Shown piece after piece: positions 3,143-57,447 of a DNA stretch of 64,000 nt. The stretch is from Paraspadella gotoi (Eukaryota; Animalia; Chaetognatha). Position 1 is the first letter of the stretch, and every line of letters starts with the position of its first letter. Below the pieces are notes generated by a model. That model had not been told where the DNA came from. It did no database searches and was given only the letters and a program-made list of their open reading frames with translations. A program made the position numbers and the translations under genes. The stretch is taken from assembly GCA_051294375.1 (NCBI GenBank), contig CM119271.1:10667376-10731375 (forward strand), in the 5' to 3' direction.

Positions 3143-3382
3143 AGTGTCTTTTCATAAAATCGAAACATTCTTTGAAATATTATACCACTTCATTGATAGG
3201 GAGCCAGGTTCTCGGGGATTGAGTAAACGATACTGTGAGAAAGTCTTGATTGAAAACTTGCAGGGACCTGCTATGCCATTATCTTGTAAGAATGAGGCCT
3301 TAAACCACCAAAGCCTGTGCAAAGTCAGGGACAAGATAGCTTATTTATTGAATAAATAGATAATTTTTATATTGGTTGTACC
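3143..3382 (+). repeat. Interspersed repeat, copy 1 (homologous to 15161-15405)
   Basis: Near-identical stretches TTCTTTGAAATATTATACCACTTCATTGATAGGG...CTTGATTGAAAACTTGCAGGGACCTGCTATG...GATAATTTTTATATTGGTTGTACC occur at both loci. Confidence 0.9.
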
Positions 3383-10000: not shown

Positions 10001-11284
10001 TCGCCCTACTCGAGCTCCCACGTTCATCGCATGATGAACGTTCCTCAATATTCGCACTCTCGAAGAACGCTGCCCCTACATCACCAGCGGCTGTTGGATC
10101 AACATCAGAGCCAACAAGAGCGTCATCGTCGAGCTTATGATCAACACATTATGTCGTTTCGCAGGCAGCACGAGTCGGCGATGATGCAACAATACAGCTT
10201 CGGGACGCCGGGTCCGGTTCCTCCGCTTCCTTCCTCGTCGGCGCTGGAGTCGAACGTCTCGAGCGCGTCGGCCTCCACGCCGTCCAACGCCGCCCCTTCC
10301 GACTCTAGGATCGTCCGCAACCTCGTCGATTCCTGGGCAACGAGGAGTCATTTAATCAATCAGCATTTTCGTATTCGACAAGCGGCAGCGGCTGCGGCAG
10401 CCGCCGCCGCGGAGAGCGCCGCCGCTTACAGCTTGGATCTGAGGTCTTCCCCGACCTCGCTTTCGTTAAACTCATCTTCGTTTCCGTCGTCCCAGACGCA
10501 GCACCGACCGGAACCCCCTCTCCCCGCCGCTCCGACGACGGCCGAGACGGGGCTCCAGAATCCCCCGCCCTTTTCGTCCGCCCAAGTGGGGCCTTACGTG
10601 ACTTACCCCAACGTCCTCGCGGAAACCTCTGGCGCCATTTTCGCGCCTCCCTTCGGTCGACCAGTGCTCCACCCGCCGCCCCAAAGCGTCAACGGTTCCG
10701 CGGGCGTCCATCAGTTTCTCTCGGCGCCGACGGGCGTCGCCAACGCCGGCCAATTCCCGCCGGCCATGGAACGACCCTACGCCGGCCATCACCCCGAGAG
10801 GGCGTTGCACCTTCGCTTTCACCCCAACCGGATGTGGCACGGCAACATCATCGCTTCCTACGAGGAGCTCCTCAACCTGGAAGAGAGGATGGGCATCGTC
10901 AATCGGGGTGCTTCGCGCGAGACGATCGAACGCAATACTTTTCCTCACAAATACAAGAGGCTGAAAAAAAAGGGGGCGCTCGCGGAAAAAACCGAGGGCG
11001 TCGGAAACGGCGGCGGCGAAGGAGAAGGATCGAGTCGAAAAGACGACGACGTCGACACGAAGCTGACGTCCGCGGGGGAGGAAAACGACAAGGACGACTC
11101 CGTCGACAAATGCACGATTTGTTTGTCGGATTTCGAGGAGGAAGAGGACGTTCGTCGATTGCCTTGCATGCACTTGTTCCACGTGGATTGCGTGGACCAG
11201 TGGTTGAAGACCAACAAGTGCTGCCCCATATGCAGGGTGGACATCGAGGCTCATAGCTCCATTCATTACTTCAGTTCCAAGTGA
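7054..11284 (+). CDS. RNF111: Arkadia-family RING-H2 E3 ligase (RNF111/RNF165-like); one intron at about 7811-8189
   Basis: C-terminal [34 protein letters not shown] (NRG/TIER motifs) and RING-H2 [32 protein letters not shown]...[12 protein letters not shown]-like motifs LEVVEI, EVVAI and [10 protein letters not shown]. Splicing 7810 to 8190 keeps the frame. Confidence 0.82.
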
Positions 11285-11660
11285 CCCGTTGTTGTTGGTG
11301 GGGAGGGATGAATTTGATTGTACGAAAACGCTTAATGGGTTTCCAGTTTAATACTTTCTCGTAGTTAAAACTTTTTTGTTCCTTTACTTTTGTTTGCTTG
11401 GTTTCCTTTCTTGGAAACGTTTGGGAACAACAGAGGGAGAAATCGTTTAACTTGAAAAAAAAAAGAAGCTAATAGTGGTTGAATTAGGGGGAAAATATTT
11501 CTTTCCTGTCGCAGCTTGAGCAATACGAAATTATGAATTATTAGCGTTTTCTTATTTAAACCAAAACAAAGATTGTACATATAACCGTTTACTTCCAGAA
11601 CCGGTTATCGATTAATGGATTTTACAAAAATGAAACGGTAAAAAAAAAGGAAAAAATACA

Positions 11661-13717
11661 ATGTCCTGCACGATGCCGTCGTTGGACTCCATATTAAAAG
11701 ACACGAACGGCGGTGAGGCCTCGCCGACGTCTTTCGGCTCCGGCTCCGCCTTCTCCTCGGAAACGGACTACCTGCAAAAGTCATTGTCGGTCTGGATCGA
11801 GGGACAGTTCGCGACGCCGCCCGGATCGTGGCGGAGAGAGCCCACGCTCGATCCCCCGGTCCCGCTGGACATTTGCACGGCGGCGAGTATTGGAAAAATC
11901 GAACTCGTCAAGACGATCGTGGAATCGAGCGACGCCGCCGGTCGAGACTTGAACCGACGAAATCGCGGCGGATGGACGCCTCTCATGTACGCCGCTCACA
12001 ACCGCCACGACGCCATCGTATCTTTACTTCTCGACCACGCCCTCGACGTCGACGTCAACGTGAAGAGCGGCGGCGGAAAGGACGTCACGGCGTTGATCCT
12101 CGCCGCCTCTTGCGGCAACGAGTCCATCTGCCAAGCGTTGATTCGCCGCGGCGCCGACGTAGACGCCCGCGATCGCAAGGGATGGACGCCGCTCTTCCAC
12201 GCCACCAACGGCGGCCACGCCAACGTGGTGCAACTCTTGCTGCGCGAAGGCGCCGCTCCCGAATGCTACGAGCCCAAGCACGAATTCACGCCGCTCATGC
12301 TCGCCGTTTGGGAGAAGCAGGAGATGATCGTCAAGAGTTTCCTCGATCACGCGACGACGTCGGCCGACGCCGCCAAGCGGATCTGCCGCTGCGTGGCGAT
12401 GAAGAACGCCGGCGGCGACACGGCCAGATCCATCGCGCTCAAGCGGGAATTCGACAAGATCGTCTCCCTCATCGACGAGTTTCTGACGGGAGCTCGATCG
12501 GGGAATCATCGAAGATCCGACGCCGACAATTTCCCCAGCATTCTCGACGGACCCAAAGCCTTTGAGAAACTCGTGACGCGAAAACCCAATCACGATCGCG
12601 CGGCGACGAGACTCGCGGCGCCGGTGGCGCCCGCGGAACCGGAACCCGACGCCGATGATGATCCTTTCGGCAACACCGCTGCCGTCACGGTTCGTTCCAA
12701 CGGGAGTCGGAACCCGACGCAAGGACTGGCGACTGCGTTTGGGGAAAGGTTTGTGACTTTAGTTGGTGTTTTATAAGCATTAATCGCGTCTTGATAAGAC
12801 CTTTTTTTGGTGTCAGTCTTTATCTCTCTTATTGTTAAAAAATAATAGAAATTTTTAGGGTGGAGAATTTTTAATAATGAAAAAAAAAATAAAGCTGCAA
12901 TATTAAGCATTATTATTTAATTCTGTTTAAACTTTAACGCAATCCTTTTATTTCGACCCGATTCTCTTACAGACTCAAAGTCAAAGATCCTCCATCTCTC
13001 CCGCCTCCAACCGTTCCTCGTCCCCACGAATGCGACGCCTCCGAACTCCCCGACCTCTCCAAGATCCTGGCCTCCCTCGGCCAACACAAATACCTTTCCC
13101 TCTTCGAAGAGCAAGACATCGATTTCCCCGTCTTCTTGACTCTCACCGACGCCGACCTCAAGGAGATCGGCGTCAACCTCCTCGGACCGAGGCGCAAGAT
13201 GACCTCCGCCATCGCTCGATTCAACGCCTCCGTCGGCGCCGCCAGAGATTTCGGCGGAGAGAGAGAGGTCGGAACCGACGCCGCCGCTGCGGGAAAGACC
13301 GAAGCTCGAAGGGACGCCGCGTTTCGGCCGGACGGCGCGACTGCTTCGGAGGAGAGAGCGGTGCGCGCTGCGCTGCGTCAGACTCTTCTCTGCTTGGAGG
13401 AGCTCCGCGAATCCGTCTCGCTCGGCCGACGACGCGGCGAAGAGTTGGAGAGAGAGTTGGAACCCTTTCTGGCGCCGACGCGGTCGCAGCGGCAGCGGCA
13501 GCGGCAGGCGACGACGTCCCGGGAGCAGCAGCCGCGGAATTCCTGTGATATTTGCCGGACTGAGTCGGAGTCGGTCGTCGACGTCGCGGATCGATTCAGG
13601 ATCGAAGTGGATCGATTGTTGGCGACGCAGGCGGAGTGCATCGAGGAGACGATGAGGAGGATCGGAGGAGGAGGAGGAGGAGACGGGCCGGGTTATCGTG
13701 CAAATTCTTTGTTATAA
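11661..13717 (+). CDS. ANKS3: Ankyrin repeat and SAM domain protein 3; intron at about 12749-12972
   Basis: PLDICTAASIG followed by ankyrin repeats (GWTPLMYAA, TALILAASCGNE, GWTPLFHA). SAM domain LGQHKYLSLFEEQDIDFPVFLTLTDADLKEIGVNLLGPRRKMTSAI. Confidence 0.88.
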
Positions 13718-14650
13718 ATCTCTCGATATACTATTATGTTTTATTAATTTTTTTTTCATGCTCAATGGACAAGAGATTCTATTTTTTTTATTTGACGCTT
13801 TTATATCGATTTTTTTTTTAAAATACTATTAGACTAGAAAATTTTTTTTTCTGAGATAGATGTTTCGTTGTTTCTTAAATTTGAAATTTGTTCGTTATAA
13901 AATGCCTTTTTAATTAGACATTCCTGAAACTAGTTATCTGTACAAGATAAAGATAGTTTTATCGATTTTTTTTTGTCAATGTTTAAGTGTATCTTCGTGT
14001 TATTTGCGAGTCTTTAGTTTGGAATTTAAATTTTTGTTGTTGTTTAAGAGTTGTTTAAAAAAGTTGGATTTTTACGAAGACCTTAATTATGCTGTTTTGA
14101 TCAAACTTAATCGTGCCGTTAAACCGCCTAAAGTGCTATTGCTTTGTCCTACAGATTTTCAGCGATTGTCTTTTGTTGATTGTGCGATGATTCGCTCGAA
14201 TTCGACACCAGGGCATTTTTGAGGATTGCTAAGGATTACGTCCTCTTAGCTCGCAGGAATTTTGTTCTTAAGTAAATTTTTATCTCCTCTGTCTCGACGT
14301 CTTTGGCCCAAAGTTTGGGGAGTAAATGCTGCATAATTCATTAAGAGGACAATCTTCCCCAGGAATGCCCTTTCTTTTTACATCTTCCTCTTTTCTCTCA
14401 AAAGAAGGATTCGCTAATTTAATTGTCATTGTTTCCTCGACAAAAAGACTAAGTTGCGGAAACGAACGTAGTCTGAATTTAATCTCTTCTCGATGCAATA
14501 GTATTTCTCTTCGATTCTCTAATGTCCTTAGGGCCAAGTCAAGTGTCATTTTTAGACCTAAAAGGAAAACAAAAATTTGATCCGAGTTTCCTTCGCCCGA
14601 TTTATTTTTCAGAAATATATCTTGAATAATTTTTTCAGAATATCTTGATT

Positions 14651-16294
14651 ATGCCAAACGTTTCTCGATGTTCATCGATGTTGACGACGAAAAAACTTCT
14701 CATTCTCTACGCGTTTTCATCCTTCGTCGCTCTTCTTTATTTGATGATCTGGTGTTCGGCCGACAAGGATCGTTCCAGGAGAATATACGAGGCCAGTTTA
14801 ATGGGTTATACCTTGAGTTTTTTGGTCTGATATTCTTAATTTACAATTTATGAAACATAATTTACAGGCCCAAATCGAACGCGATAGGGAGAGTTTGCAC
14901 GAATCCAAACTCAGTCTCCGAAAACTCGAAATCGAGTTGAGAAAAAAATATCCCCAAGAGTCGCGATCCATACAAGAAAAGGCGGCGACTGAGGTACCAA
15001 TATTATCAGATAAATCTATAGGCAGTTCTAGACTGTTAAATAACATTAAATGAATGGATAATTTTTATATTGGTTGTACCAATTTCATAAAATTCAGCTC
15101 CTTGTATTTTGATGCTAGTGCGGAGTACAATAAGTATTCCCCGATCTAATACTTAAGGGAGTGGTCTTTTCATACAATTTAAACCTTCTTTGAAATATTA
15201 TACCACTTCATTGATAGGGAAGCCAGGTACTCTGGGAGTGAATAAACGAGACTGTGAAAGAGTCTTGATTGAAAACTTGCAGGGACCTGCTATGTAATTA
15301 TCTTGTAAGAGTGATGGAGGCCTTAAACCACCAAAGCCTGTCCAAAGTCAGGGGCAAGATAGCTTATTTATTAAATGAATGGATAATTTTTATATTGGTT
15401 GTACCAATTTCATATTGAGGCGATCAAATCGACAAAAAATTAATCTACAAAAGCCCGCCGTTATCATTTTCTTATACCATCTTATACCATTCTCAATCTT
15501 ATACCATTCCCCTATTTTCTTAGCTGCCATGGATCTACGCCATCACCCCCACCTACAAACGGCTCGTCCAGAAGGCGGAACTGACCCGCCTCTCCCAAAC
15601 TCTCGTCCACCTCCCCAAATTCCACTGGATCGTCGTTGAGGACGCCGAGGAAACGAGCGCCCTCGTCGCCGATCTCCTCGCCTCATCCGGCATTGTCTTC
15701 ACTCACCTCCACGCCACCACCCCGCCAGATTATAAACTGGAAACCAATCAGCCCAACTGGTTCAAGCCCCGCGGCGTGCTGCAGCGGAATCGCGGGTTGG
15801 CCTGGCTCCGCGCCAACCGATTCCCGTGGCGCGACGATGGCGTCGTCTATTTTCTCGACGACGACAACACCTACGACCTTCGTCTCTTCGAGGAAATGCG
15901 CTCCGTCGATCGAGTCGGCGTCTGGCCCGTCGGCCTCGTCGGCGCCCTTCTCTACGAGGCGCCGATCGTCGGCGTCGACGGCGGCGTCGTTGGATGGCAC
16001 TCGGGATGGAAACCCGAGGAAAGGCCGTTCGCTATGGACATGGCCGGGTTCGCCGTCAGGCTCAAACTCATCTTTCTCTTTCCCGACGCGGTCTTTGGGC
16101 TGAGGGTCAAGAGGGGATATCAAGAAGGGTCACTGTTGGCCAAGATGAACGTGAGCCTGGCCGATCTCGAACCAAAGGCCAACAACTGCACCGAGGTCCT
16201 CGTCTGGCACACGCGAACGGAGAAGCCGGAGATGAAGATGGAGAGAAAGTATCAGCGGTTGGGGAAAGGGTCGAGGATGGATGTCGTCGTTTGA
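14651..16294 (+). CDS. GT43 beta-1,3-glucuronyltransferase (B3GAT/GlcAT family); 3 exons
   Basis: N-terminal type II TM segment, then LPWIYAITPTYKRLVQKAELTRL, VYFLDDDNTYD, RPFAMDMAGFAV and LEPKANNCTEVLVWHTRTEKP. The paralogue (B3GAT1/2/3) cannot be resolved by eye. Confidence 0.93.
15045..15414 (+). repeat. Interspersed repeat, copy 2, bounded by 45-bp direct repeats, in a B3GAT intron
   Basis: ATTAAATGAATGGATAATTTTTATATTGGTTGTACCAATTTCATA at 15045-15089 and 15370-15414. The interior matches 3143-3382. Confidence 0.88.
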
Positions 16295-16593
16295 GGCGTC
16301 GCTGAAGGAATTTCGAGCCTCTCATCACTCTTTATGCGTTTTACTTTTAATGCTATAATGCCCTAATGCCCTAATGTCATGAAAAAGAACGATTATGAAC
16401 GAGTGCAATCCAGAAATTTGTTCTATTTCCCCGAGCGATCAAAAATCTTTAGTACAAAATACGCGTTTTACGAAGTTTTACGACAGCTACTGTCCTTAAC
16501 TTCGCGCATTTTTTTTCACACATCTCATTGTTAACTAAGTCATTGTTGTTGTTGGTTATTTTTTACCTTTTCAATCCTTCAGCTTTGGTCCAA

Positions 16594-17386
16594 ATGATCG
16601 GCCCCCCCTGTCGATTGAAAATGATAGAAATTGACTCCGGCTCGTCTTCCTCCGAAGACGATTTCATTCCCTTGTGGAACGAAAAGCCCAAACCCTTGGT
16701 ATCGCGAATCAAGTTGCCGCAGGCGATGGTAATCGCTTTTTAGAGAATCATCGGTTGGTCGATCGATCCGTCCAAACAACATGATCGAATCTGTTTTCAC
16801 TTACAGCTTTCACACGAACGAAAGTCGCTGCCGCCTTCGATGACCCTTTCTAAAAAAGTGGCGTCATCGCCGACGACGATTCCTAAACGCTCCGCAGGTC
16901 GGGGACGGGGAAAGAATTCTCTAGCGCCGTCAGTCGGTAAAGCGGCTTCTTCAACGGCGTCGTCCTCATCGCTCGAAGTCATCGACGACCCTGCCGCACC
17001 TGGCGATCCATTCGGACTGGGTTTCGTTCAGCTGAACCAAAGGTGAAGCGGGGAACTTGGATTGGGTTTTTTTTTTTTACGGTGACGTTTGAGAAGTTTA
17101 GAATTTAATCGTTCTCAAAAGTTAATCGTTCAACTGTAGTAATTATGGTAACTGTAGTAATAATTTGTTATATAGTGATTAAAATTTAACGAATCTACGA
17201 TTCTCCAAAATGTTTCTTGTTTCTTTTTAACTTCTCCCCCATTTTATCATGGCCAGAGCATCCCCGCCCACCCTCAATCTCACGCCGGACGAATACAAGA
17301 CGACGGTGGAACGGACGCCTCTCGGCGGCGCCGAACGGATGGAATCTCAGGCGGAGAAAATGGCCAGATTCGGGCTCAACGTCTAG
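16594..17386 (+). CDS. Uncharacterised ~170-aa Ser/Pro-rich protein; 3 exons (about 16594-16728, 16807-17042, 17257-17386)
   Basis: Three GC-rich segments are joined in frame by GT-AG introns (ATG|gtaatc..ttacag|CTT; CAA AG|gtgaag..ggccag|A), ending ...QAEKMARFGLNV*. No recognised domain. Confidence 0.62.
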
Positions 17387-17663
17387 GGCTCTTCTTGAAA
17401 CTTTTATTGTTGTTACAATCATTCCGGATATTAAAAACAAATTATACAATTATACAAGTAAACAAATACTATTAATAAAATTAGGTTATTAGCTTATTAG
17501 ATTAATTTCTTTAATATTGTTGGACTTTGGTGATTGTTAACATTAAATAGTTGTTTTCGCTCCGATCGTGTCTTAAAAATTATATTTTTCTTTATTTATT
17601 GTTCGCTTTATACTTCTCGTCACATTTGCAATTTGGCATGTATATTCTCTACTAGAAGTCAAA

Positions 17664-19604
17664 ATGAACGGCAATGAAAAAGATAATCCCGCGGAGCCGT
17701 CGGTCAACGACGACTCCGAGTCTCGACCAGAAACTCCTTCCAAAAGTTCAGTCGCGCCCTCTGGTGCATCCGCCGACCCAGCGACCGCCTCGGCATCTCC
17801 GCTTCGCTCCAACGCCATCGTAATTTCCGGCGGCGGAAAGCGTCGCCGTCTTTTGTCCGGTTCCGGACCTTCCAGCGGACTCTTGGGCGCCGTCCCACCT
17901 TCGCCACCAAAATTCGCAACCTTGGACGAGATTATGAGAGCGGCGTCGGGCGTCACTAATATGGTATCGGATCGGATCTCAATCATTTCCTTTTTTCCAT
18001 TCGACTTGGTAAAACTTCCTTTTGCCTTCAAATCCCATCCCAGGCGTTGGCGCACGAGATTGCCGTTGACAAGGACTTCAAGCTGGAAAAAGCGGATCCG
18101 CCTTCATCTTCATTCCAGGGCGCGCTCAAGTCGATGGTACACCGTGCCTTCTGGGACATTTTGGAAGAGAGGCTCAACAGCGACCCTCCGGAGTACGAGC
18201 GCGCCGTCAAGATCTTCGAGGACATACGCGAGATGCTCAAGGGCCTGCTATTGCCGCAGCACGAGCGTCTCAAGCGGCAGATCGAACAAGTTTTGGACAT
18301 GGACGTCATCGCGCAGCAGGCGGAAGCAGGGACAATCGATCCCTACGGGTGAGTTTTTTGAATAAAAAATTGTGAAAAATTGAGTTAAATTTATTTTTTT
18401 TTAAATTTATTTTGTTTATACATATAATGATATATAATGATATATAAAATGATATATATTTTGTTCAGTTACACCGACTTTGTGCTCAACTTAATGGCGA
18501 AGCTTTGCGCGCCAGTTCGCGACGACGACATCGCTTCCCTCCGCAGCCGCCAAGAGTCCCGCTCCGACCTCGTCGCCCTCTTGCGATCCATCGTGGAAAC
18601 TCTCGAGCTGATGAAGATCGACATGGCCAACTTCACCATCCAACAGCTTCGGCCCTTTATCCAAAGTCAGTCCGTCGAGTACGAAAAGCAAAAATTTTCC
18701 GAGTTTCTGCAAACGCAATCTGACGGCCTGCTCTATACTCGTAATTGGTTATCCGCGGCGTTGGAGTCTTCGTCCAAACTCAATGAACAGGCGGGCGACT
18801 CGCTGGACTCATCGACGCAATCACCACTCACGCCCGCCGCAGTTCTCGTCGACGCTTTCGTCTCCCTCTTCTTTCGCGACGAATCTCTACCATATCCCGA
18901 GACGTTGTTAATGGACGAAGGGCGTCTGCTCCACCTTCGCGATCAGTTCCATCGGATCGTTCTCGTCGGCTCCGTGCTTTTGCTCGTGTACAATGCCGTT
19001 GGAGGACCCATCGCCGGATTGGCGGCGCTCAAGTCGCAGCTGAAATCTTCCGTCCAAGTGCTGCTCGGGGCGCTACCTTCCGAGGCGCAGGTGAGAAATT
19101 TGTAGGGAAGAGAAGAGTTTTGAATACTTAAGTTTTCAACCTCTGAAAAGAATTATGCTTTCTAATTTTATTGTAATTTAAAATTCGATATCTTCCAAGG
19201 GGGATTCTAGCGAAGGAGCGTCGTCAAACGCCGATTCCGAACTCGCGGAAAAACTGAGCCAAATCTTCGAGCGCGTTAAGGCCGACGTGGAATCCAGTCT
19301 CACATCCCACGGATTCCGTTCTCCCTCCGATGAGACTTGGTCCGCCCTTCGTCTCCAAATTACCGGCCTTCGCAGCCCCGACCAACCCGTCGTCGTCATC
19401 GTGTCCAAGCGGCTCGGCGACTTCGTCAAGGCCGTCATCGAAGCCAAAGACTCTCTGCAGATTCCCGCGGGCCTCTCGGGGCTGCAAAAGGAGATCCTCG
19501 ACATGGTTTCCGCCTTCATGAGGATCGTAACACACAACAGGGCCGTCTATGGCGATTACTATCAGGACATCATTCAGACTTTGACTCGACCAATCAGTCA
19601 GTAG
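17664..19604 (+). CDS. T-complex protein 11-like (TCP11L1/2 family); 4 exons
   Basis: NMALAHEIAVDKDFKLE, MVHRAFWDILEERL, LMAKLCAPVRDDDI, LELMKIDMANFTIQQLRP and YPETLLMDEGRL are TCP11 family motifs. Confidence 0.9.
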
Positions 19605-20033
19605 CTGGATTAGAAGTTCATCAACCCGTTTGGACGTGCAGGATTTGGGTGATCTGTGTCGTCGTCGAACCCATGATTTCAAACGACGATAGGTTAAAGA
19701 TCGATCGTCTTAGTTTGTTTTTATTAGCCGTAGTTTTTCATTGTTTTTGATTGTGAGTTTGAAAATCACAGTGGTGTGATGCAAGTCAGTATATCTTATT
19801 GTGTTTGCGGCAGATATCTTCTTGTTCCCATTAGTTAGTGATACGAGATATCTTCTAGTCTTTTGTCGTTCATCTAGTTTTTGTTTTTCTCACGTCCATG
19901 GGTCAAAGAGACGTAATTTTTTTTTTCCGTTGATTTCGATGTTTATAAACTTATATTCGAAATAAAATTATTTCATTAATTTCAATTTGTTTCGTATTGA
20001 CTCCATATTTTACGAACCACGACGCCTCCTTAG

Positions 20034-21226
20034 ATGAAAGACCACAGCCCGTCCCGCGCCCCTAAATGGCGCAAGATTCTGTACGAGCGTCTCCCGTTCG
20101 CTGACAACCACGTCGACGCCTCTTTCCTCGTCGAACTTCGCAAGAACATCTCGACCCGCATCCACTCGTTGGGCGTCGTGATTCGCGAGGCTGAGGTCGT
20201 CTCCCGTCAACTCAGCTGCGTCGCTCTTTTCGTCGCCGTCTTCGCCGGCCTCTCAACCGGCGTCGCGGCGCCCGTCAACGTCGTTGCCGCCGGCGTCGGC
20301 TGCGTCGTTGCCGGCGGCGTCATTTTTCGCTCCATCGAGCCGGACCGCGTCTCCTGGTTCCGTTTGGCTCTTTCCTGCATTCCTTATCTCGCGCTTTGTT
20401 TCGGTTTGTCTCCGATTTTGATGACGCTGACGCGGACGATATCGGAAGACACGCTTTATGCGATGACGGTCGGAATGTTGCTCTGCTACCTCATTTTCTA
20501 CGATTACAGGTAGCTGGAATCTTGGAAGAGAGATCGTTATTGCAGAATATTGAGATCCTTGGAGCTTATTGGCGTAAATTTGTTGTTGTCTTCTTCTCCT
20601 GGAAGCGTGCTAAAATCTTTATCCTTTTGCCTTTTTCAAGCTATTGTTTTTTCTTCTTGTGAGATGAGAATTGGGAAGGTGAGGTTAGGGGAGTCCTTGA
20701 GACGAGGAAAATTTGTCCTGGTAAGATCGGAGAATTCTATAGAGCGGTTCAATATTTGGCGACCCGCTTCCGTCTTCTGCTTTTAGTTCCACGGCGTCGA
20801 TGGTGTCGTCGCCGGTTTCTCTCAACGCCGCCTTCTTCGCCTCTATCTGTCTCGCGTCGCGCCTTCCATCGGTCCTTCACACTTTCGTCATTGTCACCGT
20901 CGCTTTGGTCACTTTCGCTCTCTGGCCCGAGCTTCATAGGTGCCAAGCATTTTTTAATCTGTGCTCCGTGATTCCATCGTAATCGCCCATTTGACGTAAA
21001 TAGGAAACTCTGCGCCCGTACGCCGCCTTGGTTCCAGGACGGAATGACCCTAGTCTTTGCGGCGACGTCGGTCGGCGTCACCTCGCGATTTTCTGGCGTT
21101 GGCGCGATTCTCTTGTCGCTCTCTCACCTTTTCGTCGTCGTCCTCTGCCCCGCCATCTTCGTCAGAATGCAGAAGGACAAACACAACATCTACGGACCCT
21201 GGGACGAGGCCGTCATTTCTGATTGA
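20034..21226 (+). CDS. PIGC: Phosphatidylinositol N-acetylglucosaminyltransferase subunit C; 3 exons
   Basis: WRKILYERLPFADNHVDASFL, LSPILMTLTRTISEDTLYA, SLNAAFFASICLASRL and C-terminal KHNIYGPWDEA. Confidence 0.93.
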
Positions 21227-21354
21227 CATTTACTTTCTTCAACGCGCGACCACCGTTATTTTTGGTTTTACGTTTTGGAAAGAATCTCTTCTATTTATTC
21301 ATTGATTATTGATCGATTTATTCAGCCAATTCAGTCTATTTATTTTGATAAACA

Positions 21355-25355
<4,001 letters not shown>

Positions 25356-25531
25356 CTTTTTTTTTTTTGTGATCCTCTCCGGCTTTTACGAATTTTTGCC
25401 GATCGTTTTGCCAAAAACTATAAGTATTTTATATGGAAATCTAAATGTTAGTTCGATTTCTCAATTTTTGTTATTGAAGTCGTTTGTTCTTGACTAAAAC
25501 GAAAAAAAAAAAAAAACCGCGAAAAAAAAAA

Positions 25532-26899
25532 ATGATTACTAAAAGCCCCATGGTCGTCGCCAAGCAAAACTTGTGCGCTTCTCTCAGTCAATCGGAATGG
25601 AAGTCCTACTTGGGTTTGATGAAGCAATGGTTCAAAGGCATCATCACCAAGGAGACCTTCGACGCAGAGGCTCGCTCCCTTTGCAAAGATCGTCGGAGTC
25701 TTCACCACCACAACCAACTTCTTTTGGCGCTCTTTGTCTCGTGCAACTCCTTCTCCGGCGGGAGCGGCGGCACTCCCTCGGCGCCTTCCCCGGCTCCCTC
25801 CGTCATCGACGATGCCAAGAAAGCTGGCGGCGTTTCGGCAACTATCGGCGCGGCGTCCAACGCCGCTTCGCCGGCGTCTTCGAGTTCCGTCGGTGCAAAA
25901 GCCAAAGACAACGCGAAGGGGAAGAAATTGAAAAAGCCGAAATCCAAGAAAATCTCATTTCATAACAATTTCACGCCGACGAATCCGCTCGCGTATGCAG
26001 TACAGGTGTGGGAAGCTATTGTGTAATATTAACGGTATTTAACTTAACAATAATATATTTTTCATTATCTCATTGCAGATGGTCTCAAAAAGTCCCGAGG
26101 AAGAGCGAGGAATAGCGTTGACGTCACGCACGCGAACTTTACCCGACGCCTCCATGGTTCACGGCCGCTTGCTGGTGGGCGCCTGGGACGCCGGCCTCGA
26201 CGCCGTCCAAGAAAACGCCGTTCACTTACTCTGCAACGCCGTCGAGATGCATATGAGAGAAATCCTCGTGGCGATGGTGAGAAGATTGATATGTAACTGT
26301 CACTCTCGATTTTCCTTGTACTTACCTCTAACTTACCTTACCTTTTCATCATTTATCAACACTATTCAACAGATTAAAAATCGGAAAGCTTACCAACTTC
26401 GCGACGGACGGTTTCCGACTCACTTTGGCAGCGAACAATCTAACGGTTTTGCACGCAACTCGTCAAAAGCGTTGCCCTCGCTTCAACGGAGGGTTCGTTG
26501 TCCAAAAAGCGTCAATAAATCAATAAATAAATCCAATAAATCCAATAAATCCACCAAGCAAATTAATTAAAATCAGTCATTCACCCCCAACTTCCTCCGC
26601 AGTCGTCGACTTCCGCCGAACTCGACGAGGACGACGTCGCCTGTCACTTTGCTCAGTCGGCGGCGCCGGCCGTCAAACGGCGCCGCACGCCGCTGACTCT
26701 GATGCATCTCCGCGACGCGCTGACGCGGCACCGGAGCTGCATCGCCTCTCACACCGTCTACGCGATCAACATGGAGAGAATCCTCAACGCTTTTGATCAC
26801 CCGACGAGGGAAGACGAGGAGCAAGGGGAGCAGATAATGAAGGAGAGGGGGAGGAAGAAAGAGACCGAAGAATACAACGCGCTCGTTAAGAATTGGTAG
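25532..26899 (+). CDS. TADA1: SAGA complex subunit transcriptional adapter 1; 4 exons
   Basis: AKQNLCASL..YLGLMKQWFKGIITKETFDAEARSL..HHHNQLLLAL, LPDASMVHGRLLVGAWDAGLD and HTVYAINMERI match TADA1 motifs. Confidence 0.88.
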
Positions 26900-27305
26900 C
26901 CGGCTTTACGTAAATAGTATCGTTTTAATTCGTTAATTCGTACTGTAGTATTTCGCCAGGTTTTCGCTTATATATTGCCATTTTTATTTAATCGATTTTT
27001 CTTCTTATGTTACAATCTTATGATTTTGTGTATGCAGAAGCAAATCTAATTCAAGATTGACGTGTTTGATAAAATAATTTACTTGATAAATCTTGAAATA
27101 CATTTGTCTTCTTTTATGTTTTTCTCAAAAATTCCCACTATGCATAATATGCATTGCATATTCCTTCTGCTACCATGACTGATATTTAGCCGCGATGACG
27201 AGCGTTTCTGTGATAAAATTATCCTCCTTTTCTAGTTGTGGTTTATTTCCTTTTCCGCCCAAAGAGTAAAACAAAAAGATTTGAACTCAAGACCATCAGT
27301 CAATC

Positions 27306-29098
<1,793 letters not shown>

Positions 29099-29518
29099 GA
29101 TTTTTTTTTCCCTTGGCCGCGTTAGTAGACTTTTTTTTTTTTTAAATTAAACTATTTGCTGCCGCGTTGCGTTTAACTGGTTCGTAGTCTCTTGAGAAAT
29201 ACGTCATTGTAATAGCGCTTTATCGCTTTTTTTCCTCTTGAATCCCGCGATGTTTAATTTTTTTTCTTAATCATGAAGTCTAAAGATTTAACTGATAAGC
29301 CTGAGGTTTTCCCCATTTTCATGAAACGTAGTTTGTTAATCACAGCTATGTTTCAAAGCGTTAAGCTATTTTCACTTAGATAGAAATCTCACCCTTTGTA
29401 TCTCAAAAATCGGGATCCATTGTTTTTTCTCGTCTTTTAGTAAAAAACAAAAACAAAAACATGAACGCTGTCGCCGATCGCCAGAAAGTCCGACTATTCT
29501 CGAACTGAAAAAGCGAAG

Positions 29519-30085
29519 ATGGAGAGCGACGAGCGATTCCCCGAAGATCGCGACGCCTCGGGCGCCGGTGGCGCCGCCTCCTCCGGCGCCAGTTTCGAGT
29601 GTAACATCTGCTTCGAGGTTGCGAGCGACGCCGTCGTAAGCCTCTGCGGTCACCTTTTCTGTTGGCCCTGCATCCACCAATGGCTGGAGATGGGACCACA
29701 CCGGCAGACCTGCCCCGTCTGCAAGGCCGCCGTATCCAGGGACAAACTCGTACCGCTCTACGGTCGCGGTTCCGACAGCAACTCCGATCCCAGGGACAAG
29801 GTTCCGCCGCGACCGAGCGGGCAGCGAACTGAGCCGCCGCCGGAAAACAACTTTTACGGAGGATGGGGACATCCCGGCGCCGGTGGCGGGGGCGGCGCTA
29901 ACGGCTTCCACATGTCATTCGGCGTTGGCGCGTTTCCCTTTGGATTCTTCTCCTCGACCTTTAACGTCGGAGGCGGTGACTTCGCCGCCGGACAGCAAAG
30001 AGGTGGAGGGGAGGATCAGGAGGTCCTCTCCAAAATGTTTCTCATCATAGCTCTAGTCTTTATTTTTTGGATGATTATGGTTTAA
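29519..30085 (+). CDS. RING-HC tail-anchored E3 ligase, RNF5/RNF185 family; intronless
   Basis: [81 protein letters not shown] and a C-terminal TM segment. Confidence 0.95.
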
Positions 30086-31248
30086 AAAAAACATTTTCTT
30101 TTAACGAATGTCTTAGCTGGCGCGTCCACTGCCGTACAAATGACGAAATTATGAAATTAAGATCGGACTTAGTTCATCCGAGTTTTGCGTACGTTTATTA
30201 TTTTTGTACCGCGCCACTCGGGGAAATGGTTGAAGAGGTGGTGAAAATTTCCATGTGGGGGTTATCTGAGTTATCAATGTCAGATTAAACGTATTCGATC
30301 GAAAATCCGATTTTAGCATGCGTAATTTAGAATGGTTTTCCATTCGGCCTGTTTTTTTCGAGTCCAGCTTAAGTTCTTTTTTCATTATTAGTTGTTTTAT
30401 GTTTAGACCACTACAAGCGCAATCAGGATACGTTGGGTATTTCTAACAACTTCTTTACTTATTTTCTTTTGTTTCACTTTGTCTTTTCTGTCACTTTTCA
30501 GACAAATACCGTTACTGTTTTTAATTGAACAAATTTTTCCGCAATTTATTTATCAGATATCTAAACTTTTCTGTATTTTTAAAATAGTAATAGTCTGTAC
30601 TTCTTTCGAGAATTTTTTGTCGATTAGACAATAAAAATGTCGGTCGCAGCCTTTCTCCGATGAAGCTCACTCCGTCACCAACTATGAACTTTTTATGACT
30701 CAAATTAGATAGGTCTTAAATGTGTCGGTGATAATTAAATCTTGGGTCGCGAAGATTCTTTCCAAATTATTATAGAGGCTTCGTACTTTGAGCTCAATCA
30801 TCTACTGCTATTGGTTCTGCGTAACCGGTCCCGTTTCACTTTTTTTCAGCGGAACGATGGCCAGGGATCCAGCCCTGAAGGCAAAGCGCAGTCGGGTAAA
30901 CCGGCTCAACCATTGAGTCAGGCAGTTTGAATGCGAGAATGAGACGGTTTCGTGGCCGCCGCTTTTTTTTACTCGGAATTTAATTTTTTTTCAATTTCAC
31001 AGCTAAGAAAATTATAACAATTGTAACTTATGTTTTATCCTAAATATTTTGTATGCCCGAGGGAAAAATCAATTAGCTCTGATATGCTGACCGCAAATGT
31101 AATGAACGATTTTCAAGTTACCGCAATAATCAGTATTCTCTTTCCAAAAAAGTACACATTTAATGAAACAAATGTATGAAACCTTCGCTTTGCTCTTCGA
31201 CTTTTACTTCGTTCTTCGACATCCCTTCCGCCCCCTAAGTCGCTCGTC

Positions 31249-31530
31249 ATGAATCCCCCTCCTTCCGCCGCGCCTACCCCTTCGCCGCCGGCCCTCAACG
31301 CCGCCCTCGTCCGACGCCTTCTCGATTCCTCCATCGAGACGCCGGGCGGTCTCCGCGTCACCGCCGACGCGGTCATCCTCACGCGGGATTTGCTCGATCG
31401 ATTCTTGACGGAAGCGTGCCTCCGCGCTGCCGCGCTGCGGCGCCAGGAGGCGGGCGACGAAGTCGACGAAAAAGTGACGGAGGAACATTTGCTGCGGATT
31501 CTGCCGCAGCTGCTGCTCGACTTTTCTTGA
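31249..31530 (+). CDS. CENPX: Centromere protein X / STRA13 / MHF2 (histone fold); intronless
   Basis: 93-aa ORF with RVTADAV..LLDRFLTEACLRAA and the C-terminal signature LPQLLLDF. Confidence 0.85.
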   Translation: MNPPPSAAPTPSPPALNAALVRRLLDSSIETPGGLRVTADAVILTRDLLDRFLTEACLRAAALRRQEAGDEVDEKVTEEHLLRILPQLLLDFS

Positions 31531-31689
31531 GTCTTCGAGTGTCTGTTTATTTTAATTTTTTAAAGTTTTTGATGCAGCCTTTTTTTTTCAGATCTAAGAC
31601 CTCACCCAAACTGACTCTTTAACTTGACCCAAACTTGACCCCAATCCCGACCTGAACTCCCAAACGCAACCCCCAACTCTTTCGTCGAC

Positions 31690-34600
31690 ATGAGTTTCTC
31701 CGGCGTCGCATTCGAGAATTTCTCGGTGACGGCGAGGGACGACGCGTTGGCGACGCAGCGCACCGCCGCCCTTCCAAGCTCCTCCCCCTCCTCTTCCTCC
31801 GCAACCAGCGGCGTCATGAATAGAATCGGCAGCAGGGGCGCCGCGTCGCCGCCTTCCTCCAACGGTCGGATCCCCGTCCTGCAGCGGCTCGGCGGTCCGC
31901 CGCGGATGGAGACGTCGTGGTCTCGATCGATGCACGATGATAGACAACCGAGACATCGTGACAGGTTGTTGTTGTTGATGGCGATGATGTTGATGATGAT
32001 CATGATGATTAATTATTTTAAAAATCCCTCGATTTTATTTATTTATTTATCTTATTATATTGATGAAAACAAATATTACTACAATTCTCTAAAAAATTTT
32101 TTTCCTTAGTACAAAATGAGCGTATGACCACGCTTTTAAACTAAAGGTTTACATGGTAACAATTTGAAAACCGGCCCCTAGTAAAAAGCTGCCATTTGCA
32201 AACGCGTAGTGATTTTATTAATTAATATCGATAACAAATATTAAATTTCTCTTGCAGGGGACGAGGCGGAGTGCCCTCCGGTCATTGGCGAGGCGGAAAT
32301 CGTGGCGCCCCTGGCGGATATCGCAATCAGCGCGGTGGTCCACGTGGCGGACCCCGTGGCGGAGGCGGCGGCTACGGCGGCTACGGAGGACATGGCGGCC
32401 GAGGATCGTATCGTCCAAGGTTGCAGTTTTACAGGCGGTTGGATTTTTTGTCGGACAGAGAGCAACTTAACTTTTTGAGGGGTGGGGAAGGGGGAATGAA
32501 AAAATTTTTAAAAAACGTCATTGACATAAAAGATATCCGTTTTTTTGTGGTCCAAAATTTAGTTCAAAATATTTTTTAAAAAAATATTGCCAACAACCTT
32601 ATGCGAGTAATTCCCTTTCCTAACGGTTGGCTCTAAAATTCTCGTCAAACTCTTATCTCATCTTCGCCCCCAATGTTTGATCCGATCTCGCGCCAGGGGT
32701 AATTATCACCGACGGAACGATCAGAACTTCCGGGGAGACGGAGACGTCGCCATGAATCCGTCCGAGGATTCCCGAAGGAGGCCCATCGCGCAATATCGCG
32801 GCAGGGAAGATCGGAGGTGAGGAAAGAGAGTTGGCTCGGCTTCATCGTCGAACCCTTTCGATATTCTTAATTCCCTCTCCTTATCCCGATGATTCCCTTG
32901 TATCGGAATAATTGTAGCGACCCGACTTGACAATTGTTTTGAATATAAAAAAATAACGGGGTCGGTTTGCTCAAACTGAATTCGTCCCTTAAATTTTTAT
33001 TTATTTGTACAATATTTAGATTTTATTTTTTCCCTGTCGCTTCGTTAATATCATTATCGATGTCATTACGCGACATTTCAGGGACTTTTTTAGGTAAATT
33101 ATTTTACTTTATAAAATTATTTCTTTGTTTTATTTCTTTCTTTTCGTTGATTTTCGAAGCATTAAAGGAAAAAGTTTTAATTTTTGTTTCAACAACGAAT
33201 GTAATTAGCATGAAAAGCGTATATGTTTCGGCTATATTGTTAGCATTCATCTGCGCAAAATTTGATTTAAAATTCTTTCAGATTTTTTGCCAAAAAGTGA
33301 TTTTGCGCTGATGTAGGCTAACAATATAGCCGAAACATGTCCGTTTTTCACGTTAATTACATTCGTTGTTGAAAAAAAAAAAATAAAAACTTTTTCCCTT
33401 TAAAATTATTTCTCTAATCATTATACTTATATTATCTCTCAAAATTGTTTTCCCTTCTCAACCTCAGAAGCGGTCATGACAACGCGGAGAAATGGTTTAA
33501 AGTTCGAATTCGCAACACGAGAGGGAAAATGTGGGAGAAAACGGAACTCCTCAAGATCCTCGCCGAGGGCGTGGCCACGCCCTTTAACGCCTTCAGCTAC
33601 GTGGAAGAAGAGAACAGCATCTGCTTTTGGGTGGAGGGAGTCTCGCTGGCCGGTGCGTTTATAATACGAGAGAACTTGATTTATGTGTTCAGTAGTTTAT
33701 ACTAGGAGCGGACATTTTTTTATTCAATAATCGTAGATAGTTAACTAATTAATATCTGGATTAAGTGATCTATATAGTACGTTATATAGAAGTGCCGAAT
33801 CTGTCTTAATACGAAGATAAAAATGTTTCGGTTTGATTTTATTCCGAAAAAAATGAAAATATTGAAGAGACAGTAATTATTGTTATGTGTTAGTGACAGA
33901 ACCGTTCAATATAAGCAGTCCCTGAGCTTCGGATCAGGCTGTAACACCCTGTTACAGGCGGGTTAAGCGCCCCGTCCCTCTTAACTGCCAGACGACCACC
34001 GGGCTAGAACCCCGGACCTTTGGGTTGGGAGGCGAATGACTTGCCTCCGGCACCAATGGCCGCTGATGAACGGTTGGTGGATTTTAGTCCACCATAATAT
34101 GTATTTTTTTTTATTTTCGCTCTCAGATTCTTTTCGCGCGGTCCAAAATCGGTTGACGATGCCCGACAACACGAAAATTCCCATTAACGTCATCCCTTTC
34201 CACGAATCTCCGCCCGTTAATCTGGAAGATGCGAACGTCATTGACGCTATGAAGACGGTAATTCAAGATCATCAATTGTCTATAAGAAATCTATTTGCTA
34301 CAAAAAATAGAACCACAAAAATATCAATTTTTTTTCACTTTCCACTTCTTCCTGTGTAGGCGTTAAACAATCGTTATCAGCTGGACGTAGGATCCTTGGA
34401 ATTAGCCGATTTTGATAAAGACGAAGCATTTCTATCTCAGGTGCGGAAAATATTTGTTTGTTTTTTTTTTTGGTTTGTTTTTTTTTTTCAAAATTGTCCA
34501 GAAGTCCTAACCGAAATATATATATTTTTTTAAATTAGGGTTACTATCTTCCTTTGAACAATCCTCGCGTTTTGGACGCCTTGACGAAAATCATTAAGGC

Positions 34601-36145
34601 GGTTCAAGTCCAAGTCAAAGCTTTGAGTCTTCGCAACAACCGACTCGTCGTTCTTGATCACGTCGCCAGATCTTTCAAAGGTGAGACAATAGACTTAGTA
34701 TTTTTATGTCTAAGAATGTCATTTATTAGCTAAAATTCAAATTAGGTGGGGGAACGAAAAACGCTGATTTAAAAAGTTTTTCTCTTCTCAACCAACCCCT
34801 CCTTCAGGCGCGGATTCCTCCATCGAGGTCCTCCATCTCGGCGACAACCGAATTCGCGGCCTCAACGAACTCGAGAAGATCAAATCCTGGCCTCTCAAGA
34901 TGCTCCACTTGGAGGGGAACAACTTCGGTCGCGGAGCCAAGACCGATCGGGAATCCTTCATCGAAACCATCCGCCGCATCTTCCCGCGCCTCGAGAGGCT
35001 CGACGAAGAGGAGATGCCGAAGGCGATCGGCTTCGCCTTGGAGAACGAGGCCGTCAACAAGGCTCTCCCGTTGGCCAAGAGATTTTTCTACGCTTCGGAA
35101 GAACCCAAGCGACTTATCTCTCAGGTTTGGTTAATTGTCTAAAGTCTTAATAAATAGTAATTTGGTTTGTCCTTGATTTCGAATGTGGTGTGAGGGATGA
35201 TTGCTATTTTTGTTACTCGATATAGGCCCTATAAGTTTCGTCTAAGTAATAAGCACCCTATATTATAGGGTGCTTATTACTTAGACGAAACTTATCTTTA
35301 ATCTTGTTATCGTTCTGTTCGCTCCCTACAGTTTCTGCAAGTTTACTTTGATTTATACGACAAAGACAAGCAGCAGCTTCTGCCCGCTTATCATTCGACG
35401 GCGGTCTTCTCCCTTTCCGCCGCCTACAACAAAGCCGTCCCCGGGAAACAATCACCGTTCGACGAGTACTTCAAGGGCAAAAGCAGGAATCTTATGAGAT
35501 CGGGTAAGTGAAAGGGGGGGAAGGTGTGTTAACGTCGTTCTTTCTCTTGAGGTGATGATAAACTCTTTGTCGTTTTCAGTCGCTCCCCCCATCGCCTTGA
35601 AATCCTGCCCGCTCGACATTTTGGCTTTTCTCAACGGACTCCCCAAGACGCAACACGATCCCAACTCTTTCACCATCGACACCGGATTCGTTTCCGCGTC
35701 GCTCATGACCTTCGTCGTCACGGGTAAATTATGACTTAAAATTAATATTAATTTTGATTATTATTAATATTAATCCCCCTTTTTCAGGCGTCTTCCGCGA
35801 GGAGGTCGAACCTTCCTCTTCTTACTCTTCGGACGACTCGTGGACTCTTCGTTCCTTCTCTCGATCTTTCGTCACGATCCCTATCGGCACCGGTGAGTTG
35901 GAAAGGTTTTTCAGGGGATCCTAAGATCGTAAGAATTCGAATATAACTTTATTTCATAAAACGAGTCCCTTTATTTTCCGCACAAGTCTTTATTTACAAG
36001 AAGGTAAAAATGATACAAGAAAATATCGCGAGAAACCATTCGGGCCGACGTCTCGCTTTCAACCAAAGTTCGATCTTTCCCTCTCCGCCCTCGGCCCATC
36101 GAACGTCCCTCCCCTTTCACCCAGTCCCGCTTCCGCTATCGTGAT

Positions 36146-36225
<80 letters not shown>

Positions 36226-36840
36226 CTCTTCCGTTTATCCTCTAGTTCATGGTGTTAGGCGAGAGAGGGAGAGGGTGAAGATGGAGGGAGGGAGGCGGAG
36301 ATTAGAAAGTATGTATTTAAAAGTCGTTAATTTAAGGAATTTAATTTAATTTAATTTAAGGAATGCAAATCATCAACGATCAACTGACGTTGACGAGCGT
36401 CACTGAAGAACAGAAGAAATCTTCTTTTCTCTCCGTCGAAGCTTCAGCAGCCGTCAACTCCCAGCCGAACGTGGTTCTGACCGAGGAACAAAAGCAAATC
36501 ATGGCGCAGTACATGCAGGTGAAGCGAGAGCGCAAAGATTTAATTAATTAGTACCTCATTCTCTTTTACTTATAGTCGTGTTTTGATCAAGTATTCGAGT
36601 AATTTTATTCTGATACTTAAAAGTTTATTACTACTTGAAACCTCTCATAACGGGAACAGTTATGGTGATTAATTTTTTACGAAATCTTCTTACTAACCGG
36701 TTTTCCAGGCGACGAACCTTGCCGAGAGTTTCGCGTTCGAGGCTTTGACGAAGTCCAACTGGAATTTAGTCGCGGCTCAAACTCTCTTCAGCGAACTCCG
36801 CGAGACCATTCCCCCTCACGCCTTTCGCACTCAGCAGTAG
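31690..36840 (+). CDS. NXF1: Nuclear RNA export factor (NXF1/TAP family); about 14 exons
   Basis: RGG-rich N-terminus, RBD (WFKVRI), LRR (LSLRNNRL, LHLEGNN, IRRIFPRLERLD), NTF2-like domain (LPKTQHD, FVVTGVFRE, RSFSRSFV, IINDQL) and TAP-C/UBA (NWNL..IPPHAF). Confidence 0.88.
33163..33402. mobile_element. ~100-bp inverted repeat with a minimal hammerhead in each arm (Penelope-like pLTR remnant) in an NXF1 intron
   Basis: Arms at 33163-33261 and 33300-33402. The + copy reads GCG-CTGATGT-A-GGCTA-acaata-TAGCC-GAAA-CATGTC-CGT. The - copy reads GCG-CAGATGA-A-TGCTA-acaata-TAGCC-GAAA-CATATA-CGC. Confidence 0.8.
33915..33988 (-). ncRNA. Twister ribozyme, circularly permuted type-P5 architecture
   Basis: Minus strand reads GCAGTT(P5) AA GAGG(P2') GA CGG(T1') GGCGCT TAA CCC(P2) GC(T2) CTGTAACA-ggg-TGTTACAG(P3) CCTGA-TCCGAAGC-TCAGG(P4/L4) GACTGC(P5'). 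Confidence 0.72.
33992..34063 (-). mobile_element. tRNA-like (tRNA-Gly-related) 72-nt head, probably a SINE Pol III promoter module
   Basis: Minus strand has acceptor stem GCGGCCA/TGGTCGT, A-box-like TGGTGCCGGAGG, TTCGCCTCCCA as in tRNA-Gly(CCC), and T-arm CCGGG-GTTCTAG-CCCGG. The anticodon stem pairs poorly. Confidence 0.7.
35231..35295. repeat. Perfect 65-bp palindrome (32-bp arms, 1-nt spacer) in an NXF1 intron
   Basis: ATAAGTTTCGTCTAAGTAATAAGCACCCTATA-T-TATAGGGTGCTTATTACTTAGACGAAACTTAT. Confidence 0.95.
36153..36229. repeat. (CT)n microsatellite in an NXF1 intron
   Basis: Long CT tract with one interruption. Confidence 0.95.
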
Positions 36841-57089: not shown

Positions 57090-57447
57090 TCGGGCGCGGG
57101 ACTCGGGGAACCGCTCCAGTTTTTTTTTTTCTTTACGGATTCGCTCATTTTATACATAATTTGTTGAAAGTCATTATCATTGGTTTTTATTGGTTTCTCT
57201 GTGATTTCGATCGATCGTTATACAAATCGTTTCTCTACTTTTAAAAGGAGGCAACAAAAAAACTGCAATACATAGAAATTGCGTTCTGCGTCAGGATTCC
57301 TTTTCGCTATCTCATCGCGCCATGATGAGATAAAAATAAAGAGGAAAATGAAGATTATTTTAACTAATTAAATTAGGAGAAAAACTTATAAAACTCACAC
57401 CATCGTCTGCCTCCCTTGCCTCCGTCCTCTGCCATGCGGGTGCGAGG

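Follow-up and report, generated by a model that had tools for sequence, protein, structure and literature searches.

The same-strand genes of the window analysed here, a stretch of 64,000 nt from the chaetognath Paraspadella gotoi (contig CM119271.1, positions 10,667,376 to 10,731,375), probably include one polycistronic unit that reaches from RNF111 through B3GAT to at least RNF5 and is resolved by trans-splicing, a reading that we hold with moderate confidence. According to this model, one promoter before RNF111 would drive a precursor spanning the row, and a spliced leader (SL) would be joined at an unpaired AG just 5' of each start codon, whereby the cut at this AG would leave the upstream message ending at or near it. 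Where a cryptic donor lies upstream, as at the RNF111 stop, the same acceptor would instead undergo cis-splicing, and intron-free multi-gene RNA left unresolved probably occurs as well. Spliced RNA contigs over three junctions and contig ends at two AGs carry this proposal, and the extent beyond TCP11L is predicted.

RNA contigs across the gene junctions

Contigs of one public run (X1) were compared with positions 11200-18340. Record 2, a contig of 4704 nt, extends from 11599 across ANKS3, a 933 bp gap, B3GAT and a 299 bp gap into an orphan gene, with the introns removed and both intergenic gaps retained. At its end, it is joined 11280->11599 across a GT..AG pair, whose donor lies over the last codon and stop of RNF111 and whose acceptor is an AG 62 nt 5' of the ANKS3 start. 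Taken as a cis-splice, this joint places RNF111 and ANKS3 on one precursor RNA, as observed in one contig of one run. Reading across it extends RNF111 by 13 residues to a stop at 11639, which leaves 19 nt to the start codon of ANKS3, so that the cis-spliced product would be an RNA with two open reading frames (ORFs), not a fusion protein.

Two further records end or begin at predicted acceptors. Record 1 (11251-11598) terminates at the G of the very AG used by the 11280->11599 joint, one of 16 AGs in the 376 bp RNF111-ANKS3 gap. Record 3 (TCP11L) starts at 17656, right behind the AG at 17655, with 10 unmatched letters in front; the 277 bp orphan-TCP11L gap holds seven AGs. The match of record 3 stops short of this AG's G, whereas 51 of the 57 cis exons in these genes end in G. 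Speculatively, the 10-letter overhang would fit a 3' end common to several leader forms in the assembly graph. The stretch 17414-17652 between the orphan and TCP11L has no cover in X1 and carries no weight either way. A mechanism of the Ciona/Spadella type would explain the bridging contig, the cis joint, the end of record 1 and the start of record 3 together.

X1 was judged to be RNA by its skipped introns, not by its record. All six predicted introns in the compared region are skipped, bin depths match the exon share per bin, and cover appears in just one intron, the repeat-bearing one. With introns skipped and depth in keeping with the exon model, the cover of the gaps does not stem from DNA. 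Among sampled words of 14620-24580, 64% are present in X1, and the listed differences from the window amount to three outside the repeat and one 1-base gap. These results refer to the records listed, with 191 further loose ends and 1276 pieces outside them; joints and loose ends falling within 15000-15420, like the joint 14638->15341, were set aside as high-copy repeat, and runs X2 and X3, with two short records each, were not counted as evidence.

An earlier note on this DNA had proposed an operon from B3GAT to RNF5, with the RNF111-ANKS3 pair outside this core. Operon-like co-transcription was supported in the part compared with RNA by the ANKS3-B3GAT-orphan contig. Because the contigs tie B3GAT to ANKS3 and RNF111, B3GAT is probably not the head of the unit, and the exclusion of the RNF111-ANKS3 pair is likely wrong. 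The features of the row are listed below.

7054..11284, +: RNF111-like RING E3 gene (Pfam RING; name from the earlier note), likely head of the unit
11281..11598, +: RNF111 3' untranslated region (UTR), also a GT-AG intron; cryptic donor over last codon and stop, acceptor G 11598 before ANKS3
11661..13717, +: ANKS3-like ankyrin and SAM gene, intron 12749-12972 (RNA contig, Pfam, gene model)
13718..14650, +: ANKS3-B3GAT gap, 933 bp, retained in spliced contig; two acceptor candidates, at 14612 (7.6 bits) and at 14638 (6.3 bits); AATAAA/ATTAAA absent
14651..16294, +: B3GAT (GT43), 345 aa; intron 1 14792-14867, intron 2 14994-15523 containing a repeat (RNA, Pfam)
16295..16593, +: B3GAT-orphan gap, 299 bp, retained in spliced contig; acceptor 16582 (8.3 bits), 11 nt 5' of the ATG, no usable donor
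16594..17386, +: orphan ORF, 166 aa, three exons, both introns skipped in RNA
17655..17656, +: acceptor before TCP11L; contig start 17656, preceded by 10 non-genomic letters; candidate site of leader addition
17664..19604, +: TCP11-like gene (TCP11L), 543 aa (Pfam, gene model)
20034..21226, +: PIGC, 283 aa; AG immediately 5' of the ATG (20033), AATAAA at 19961 (Pfam)
21355..25355, +: XPB/ERCC3, 802 aa; 128 bp gap upstream with candidate acceptor 21334 and no usable donor (Pfam)
25532..26899, +: TADA1, 362 aa; 176 bp gap upstream with weak AGs only (25424, 25479) (Pfam)
27306..29098, +: PSMC4/RPT3, 421 aa; candidate acceptor 27264 (11.5 bits) (Pfam)
29519..30085, +: RNF5-like RING gene, single exon, 188 aa; candidate acceptor 29440 (Pfam)
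31249..31530, +: CENP-X, single exon; candidate acceptor 31239 (Pfam)
31690..36840, +: NXF1, 707 aa; candidate acceptor 31591, 61 nt past the CENPX stop (Pfam)

Splice and polyadenylation signals in the gaps

Splice sites were scored with a weight matrix built from 57 introns of 11 gene models. The two acceptors seen in RNA, 11598 and 17655, are the best-scoring ones of their own windows, and the cryptic donor 11281 and acceptor 11598 are the top-scoring sites of the RNF111-ANKS3 gap. For the 11 genes from ANKS3 to NXF1, the best acceptor lying at most 110 nt from the ATG has a mean score of 6.45 bits vs. 4.19+-0.78 bits in dinucleotide shuffles (n=500, with a floor for windows lacking an AG), a mean matched by one of the 500 shuffles, and the reverse strand gives 2.6 bits. 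Across all 18 genes tested, the corresponding values are 5.97 and 4.43 bits (2/500). An acceptor-like site of at least 4 bits, a threshold chosen after the scores were seen, precedes 10 of the 11 starts, and two of these sites are matched by contig ends.

With a cut-off for usable donors of 4.2 bits (the 10th percentile of true donors), the gaps before XPB (best donor -1.4 bits), TADA1 (-5.0 bits) and the orphan (2.0 bits) hold none, leaving three of the 11 clearly unpaired. In none of the 11 gaps does a poly(A) hexamer (AATAAA/ATTAAA) lie within 50 nt of the acceptor, which is a weak result since absence is common by chance; seven gaps lack both hexamers entirely, and those before PIGC and TCP11L carry one 72 and 113 nt 5' of the acceptor, respectively. 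From acceptor to ATG, the DNA is rich in A (40%), and 5' of the acceptor it is rich in T (42%). The gaps are likely for the most part upstream 3' UTRs that end at the downstream acceptor, rather than spacers of the C. elegans type with a U-rich element. The T-richness of the gaps, which had earlier been likened to such elements, was confirmed as such, but mostly reflects a general sense-strand bias: median T skew is 0.17 in eight gaps vs. 0.11 in 25 introns of at least 100 nt (p=0.028), with T fractions of 0.395 and 0.365 (p=0.053), and a special U-rich element was not supported.

Several observations weigh against a single trans-spliced unit. The acceptor signal is modest: while 10 of the 11 starts reach 4 bits, windows inside introns do so in 26 of 44 cases (p=0.008 by rank test). 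TADA1 is the one gene of the 11 that lacks a good site, and scores fall below 3 bits for RNF111, EPB41L4A and the last gene of the window. Donors of at least 4.2 bits occur in 8 of the 11 gaps, where, judged from sequence, ordinary 5' UTR introns are possible, and the hexamers in the PIGC and TCP11L gaps are compatible with ordinary cleavage and a true spacer. On the RNA side, the evidence comes from one run and from contigs only, and a two-gene contig does not equal a single transcript. Neither leader letters nor poly(A) were seen in the listed X1 records, and the 10 letters before 17656 could be a short cis exon or an adapter. Moreover, 8 of the 11 junctions from RNF111 to NXF1 have no bridging contig (seven lie outside the region compared and one has no cover), and the ANKS3-B3GAT and B3GAT-orphan junctions are bridged by one contig alone.

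Read-through cis-splicing between neighbouring genes occurs in operon-less animals. Each gene could have its own compact promoter, with the bridging due to read-through or long overlapping 3' UTRs and the RNF111-ANKS3 joint a read-through chimera. The unseen leader, the merging of overlapping transcripts into contigs and the donors in 8 of the 11 gaps would all suit this explanation. Nevertheless, we regard it as improbable: the end of one contig and the start of another coincide precisely with predicted acceptor AGs, usable donors are missing from the gaps before XPB, TADA1 and the orphan, and all 19 genes share one strand.

The spacer of C. elegans SL2-type operons carries a U-rich element. 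An operon of this type, i.e., with a poly(A) site, a spacer of about 100 bp containing such an element and a specialised leader, could account for the PIGC and TCP11L gaps, where T-rich DNA follows the hexamer, and for the slightly higher T skew of gaps than introns. The layout (poly(A) signal some 100 nt 5' of the acceptor plus a distinct U-rich spacer) was rejected as a general description, as just two of the 11 gaps fit it and T is barely above introns. Seven gaps without either hexamer and the RNF111 3' UTR contig extending to the acceptor G also argue against this type, and no operon-specific leader was found in chaetognaths (PMC12460157, PMC2481426). Altogether, we consider it very improbable.

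Further features were observed around these signals. RNF5 (29461-29508, 15 codons) and ANKS3 (11618-11641) each have a short upstream ORF that begins after the predicted acceptor and precedes the main start codon, and leader addition would remove neither. The 358 bp gap between ACAD and EPB41L4A (57090-57447) marks a second candidate pair, with a weak acceptor (1.7 bits) and an AATAAA at 57335.

Extent of the proposed unit and its surroundings

Gene models were built from open frames and canonical splice sites, with domains checked by Pfam, and names follow the earlier note and Pfam; RNF111, ANKS3, RNF5 and EPB41L4A are names by likeness, not orthology. Pfam matches were obtained for 17 of the 19 genes in the window, among them B3GAT, TCP11L, PIGC, XPB, TADA1, PSMC4, the RNF5-like RING gene, CENP-X and NXF1. 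The + strand orientation of the orphan is shown by its splicing in RNA, and the last gene (ATG at 60406), without Pfam match, is a frame reading only. On the minus strand, none of the 39 open stretches tested (from 82 of at least 100 aa in the window) matched Pfam. If orientation were random and genes were treated as independent, 19 alike would occur with a probability of 4e-6; counted as just seven to nine units, the one-strand array still exceeds random orientation. T skew resembling that of transcribed DNA was also noticed in the LRR-ACAD gap and the gap between EPB41L4A and the last gene.

The row thus combines unrelated neighbouring genes, one strand and short gaps. Measured from stop to ATG, these gaps are 299 (B3GAT-orphan), 277 (orphan-TCP11L), 429 (TCP11L-PIGC), 128 (PIGC-XPB), 176 (XPB-TADA1), 406 (TADA1-PSMC4), 420 (PSMC4-RNF5), 159 (CENPX-NXF1), 376 (RNF111-ANKS3) and 358 bp (ACAD-EPB41L4A), and all ten lengths given before were reproduced exactly on recomputing. 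Absent from that earlier list were the ANKS3-B3GAT (933 bp) and RNF5-CENPX (1163 bp) gaps. The latter is the likeliest break in the unit, which may nonetheless extend to NXF1 and then comprise 12 genes. The row is flanked by 4775 bp of free DNA before RNF111 and 2521 bp after NXF1. Within the NXF1-hexokinase gap, a GC-richer patch with donor-like sites (37900-38220) was observed, a possible promoter with a non-coding first exon that may mark the end of the unit.

Instead of one unit, the row could be a chain whose two to four links are short operons or single genes with trans-splicing. Promoters would then lie in the wider gaps (those of 933 and 1163 bp, perhaps also those of 406-429 or 277 bp). 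We consider this possible, if rather unlikely. Such a chain would agree with reports that 93% of Ciona operons contain two genes (PMC1488885), that the 1,470 validated operons of P. gotoi hold 3,565 genes and that many of its trans-spliced genes lie outside operons (PMC12460157). Acceptor-like sites also precede CEP120 and ACAD, each with more than 1.5 kb upstream, and the hexamers in the orphan-TCP11L and TCP11L-PIGC gaps would likewise favour a chain. However, a spliced contig spans the 933 bp gap, the roomiest in the RNA-compared part, and this gap is T-skewed throughout, as in transcribed DNA. The boldest version of the single trans-spliced unit appears doubtful: here, RNF111 to NXF1 would form one 12-gene, 30 kb unit (7054-36840) cut only at acceptors doubling as 3' ends, with trans-splicing, cis-splicing and non-resolution competing per junction, in a 19-gene array approaching a kinetoplastid-like directional cluster.

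The composition of the surrounding DNA provides hints on methylation. CpG observed/expected (o/e) ratios are 1.37 in coding DNA, 1.18 in introns and 0.25-0.26 in two repeat copies, the latter figure resting on five CpGs in 652 nt. This contrast suggests, indirectly and from small numbers, the pattern expected of transposon-only methylation, which has been described in P. gotoi and in a small number of other animals, including some nematodes and ctenophores (PMC12460157). The dispersed CpG-poor repeat (o/e 0.25) occurs at 15000-15420, 3170-3400, 45360-45394 and 49532-49597 and reaches a summed contig depth of 35,000-70,000 in X1.

No SL RNA gene was found in the window, where Rfam gave no match at gathering score and a leader-like motif occurred twice vs. 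1.2 expected; 18 weak hairpin matches in 29000-39400 all lie far below gathering, and ARAGORN reported no tRNA genes. Other repeats comprise an inverted repeat in an NXF1 intron (33181-33380; arms of 81 nt, 89%), a stretch in another (33940-34075) that by eye resembles a tRNA-derived short interspersed nuclear element on the minus strand and contains no tRNA according to ARAGORN, and intronic minisatellites at 24588-25014 (52 bp period), 39813-39917 (33 bp) and 61390-61545 (51 bp).

Regarding the proteins, the best matches of B3GAT are five environmental proteins with 63-68% identity, with one partial bird model scoring among them, followed by named molluscs, a brachiopod and vertebrates at 57-63%. 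In a tree of 41 rows (40 chosen matches), it groups with the five environmental proteins (99/97) and stands apart from the rows of Ciona, molluscs, annelids and vertebrates. A tunicate-type B3GAT was rejected, the Ciona protein showing 56% identity and lying in a separate 100/100 clade. One member of the B3GAT cluster bears the source label 'merc', which we take to be a marine eukaryote catalogue. A scan of metagenome contigs with alignment A1 yielded 80 loci, the best with 59% full-length, none of which carries the motif of the B3GAT clade. PSMC4 has five environmental matches at 94-96% that share its N-terminus, the other full-coverage matches reaching at most 87%. No named chaetognath protein appears among the 120 + 120 matches listed for B3GAT and PSMC4 or the cluster members listed. 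By elimination, kin that are frequent in environmental sequence yet bear no species names, together with the CpG contrast, would suggest a chaetognath with fair probability.

Exon structure varies along the row. The first exon of PSMC4 spans 787 nt (27306-28092), and four relatives (P0142-P0145) break off at the same point. RNF5, CENPX and a 2 kb FERM gene are intron-less, XPB and NXF1 have 12 introns each, and intron 1 of B3GAT (14792-14867) reads as GC-AG by its RNA joint. For exons 1 and 3 of the orphan ORF (16594-17386), no homologue was found, with no Pfam match for either and no Atlas match for exon 3; its GC content at third codon positions is 0.63, and it may be lineage-specific.

Comparison with known operon systems

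Leader-spliced operons are already known in chaetognaths and sea squirts, and the row described here would represent a further case. In P. gotoi, nearly half of the genes are trans-spliced and 18% lie in operons, the longest of which comprises nine genes and is described as containing ribosomal proteins (PMC12460157); the present locus may already be listed in the published operon table. Published chaetognath leaders end in A, some forms sharing 10 terminal letters (PMC2481426, Table 3), and 3 nt separate poly(A) site and acceptor in the RPS14-PCNA operon of Spadella cephaloptera (PMC2481426). Similar to these operons, the row consists of same-strand housekeeping genes (proteasome, ubiquitin, RNA export), probably has an upstream 3' end at or beside the acceptor and shows unmethylated-looking genes beside CpG-poor repeats. 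It differs in that a 12-gene unit would exceed the published nine, that it contains no ribosomal proteins and that we infer membership here.

In Ciona operons, poly(A) is added at the acceptor G, mostly without AATAAA, unresolved two-gene cDNAs exist, and acceptors preceded by a donor undergo cis-splicing (PMC1488885). The resemblance to Ciona intestinalis concerns the apparent ending of the upstream RNA on the acceptor G without AATAAA nearby, the probable unresolved multi-gene RNA and the cis-splicing of a paired acceptor, whereas Ciona operons mostly hold two genes, with up to seven predicted (PMC7986045). With C. elegans, the row shares polycistronic housekeeping clusters, and the rare SL1-type operons of the nematode likewise have little or no spacer (PMC1488885). 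In contrast, the SL2 type, with its spacer of about 100 bp (PMC7986045) and U-rich layout, fits at most two of the 11 gaps here.

Both the length of up to 12 genes and the cis-splice across a cistron boundary may be new; no prior report was found in the literature searched, the cover of which is thin. If the 12-gene unit is real, operon counts based on distance understate unit length. Moreover, the junctions described here provide exact, testable cases for the question raised in Ciona of whether trans-splicing itself makes the upstream 3' end (PMC1488885), with RNF111-ANKS3 as one junction where cis-splicing takes the acceptor.

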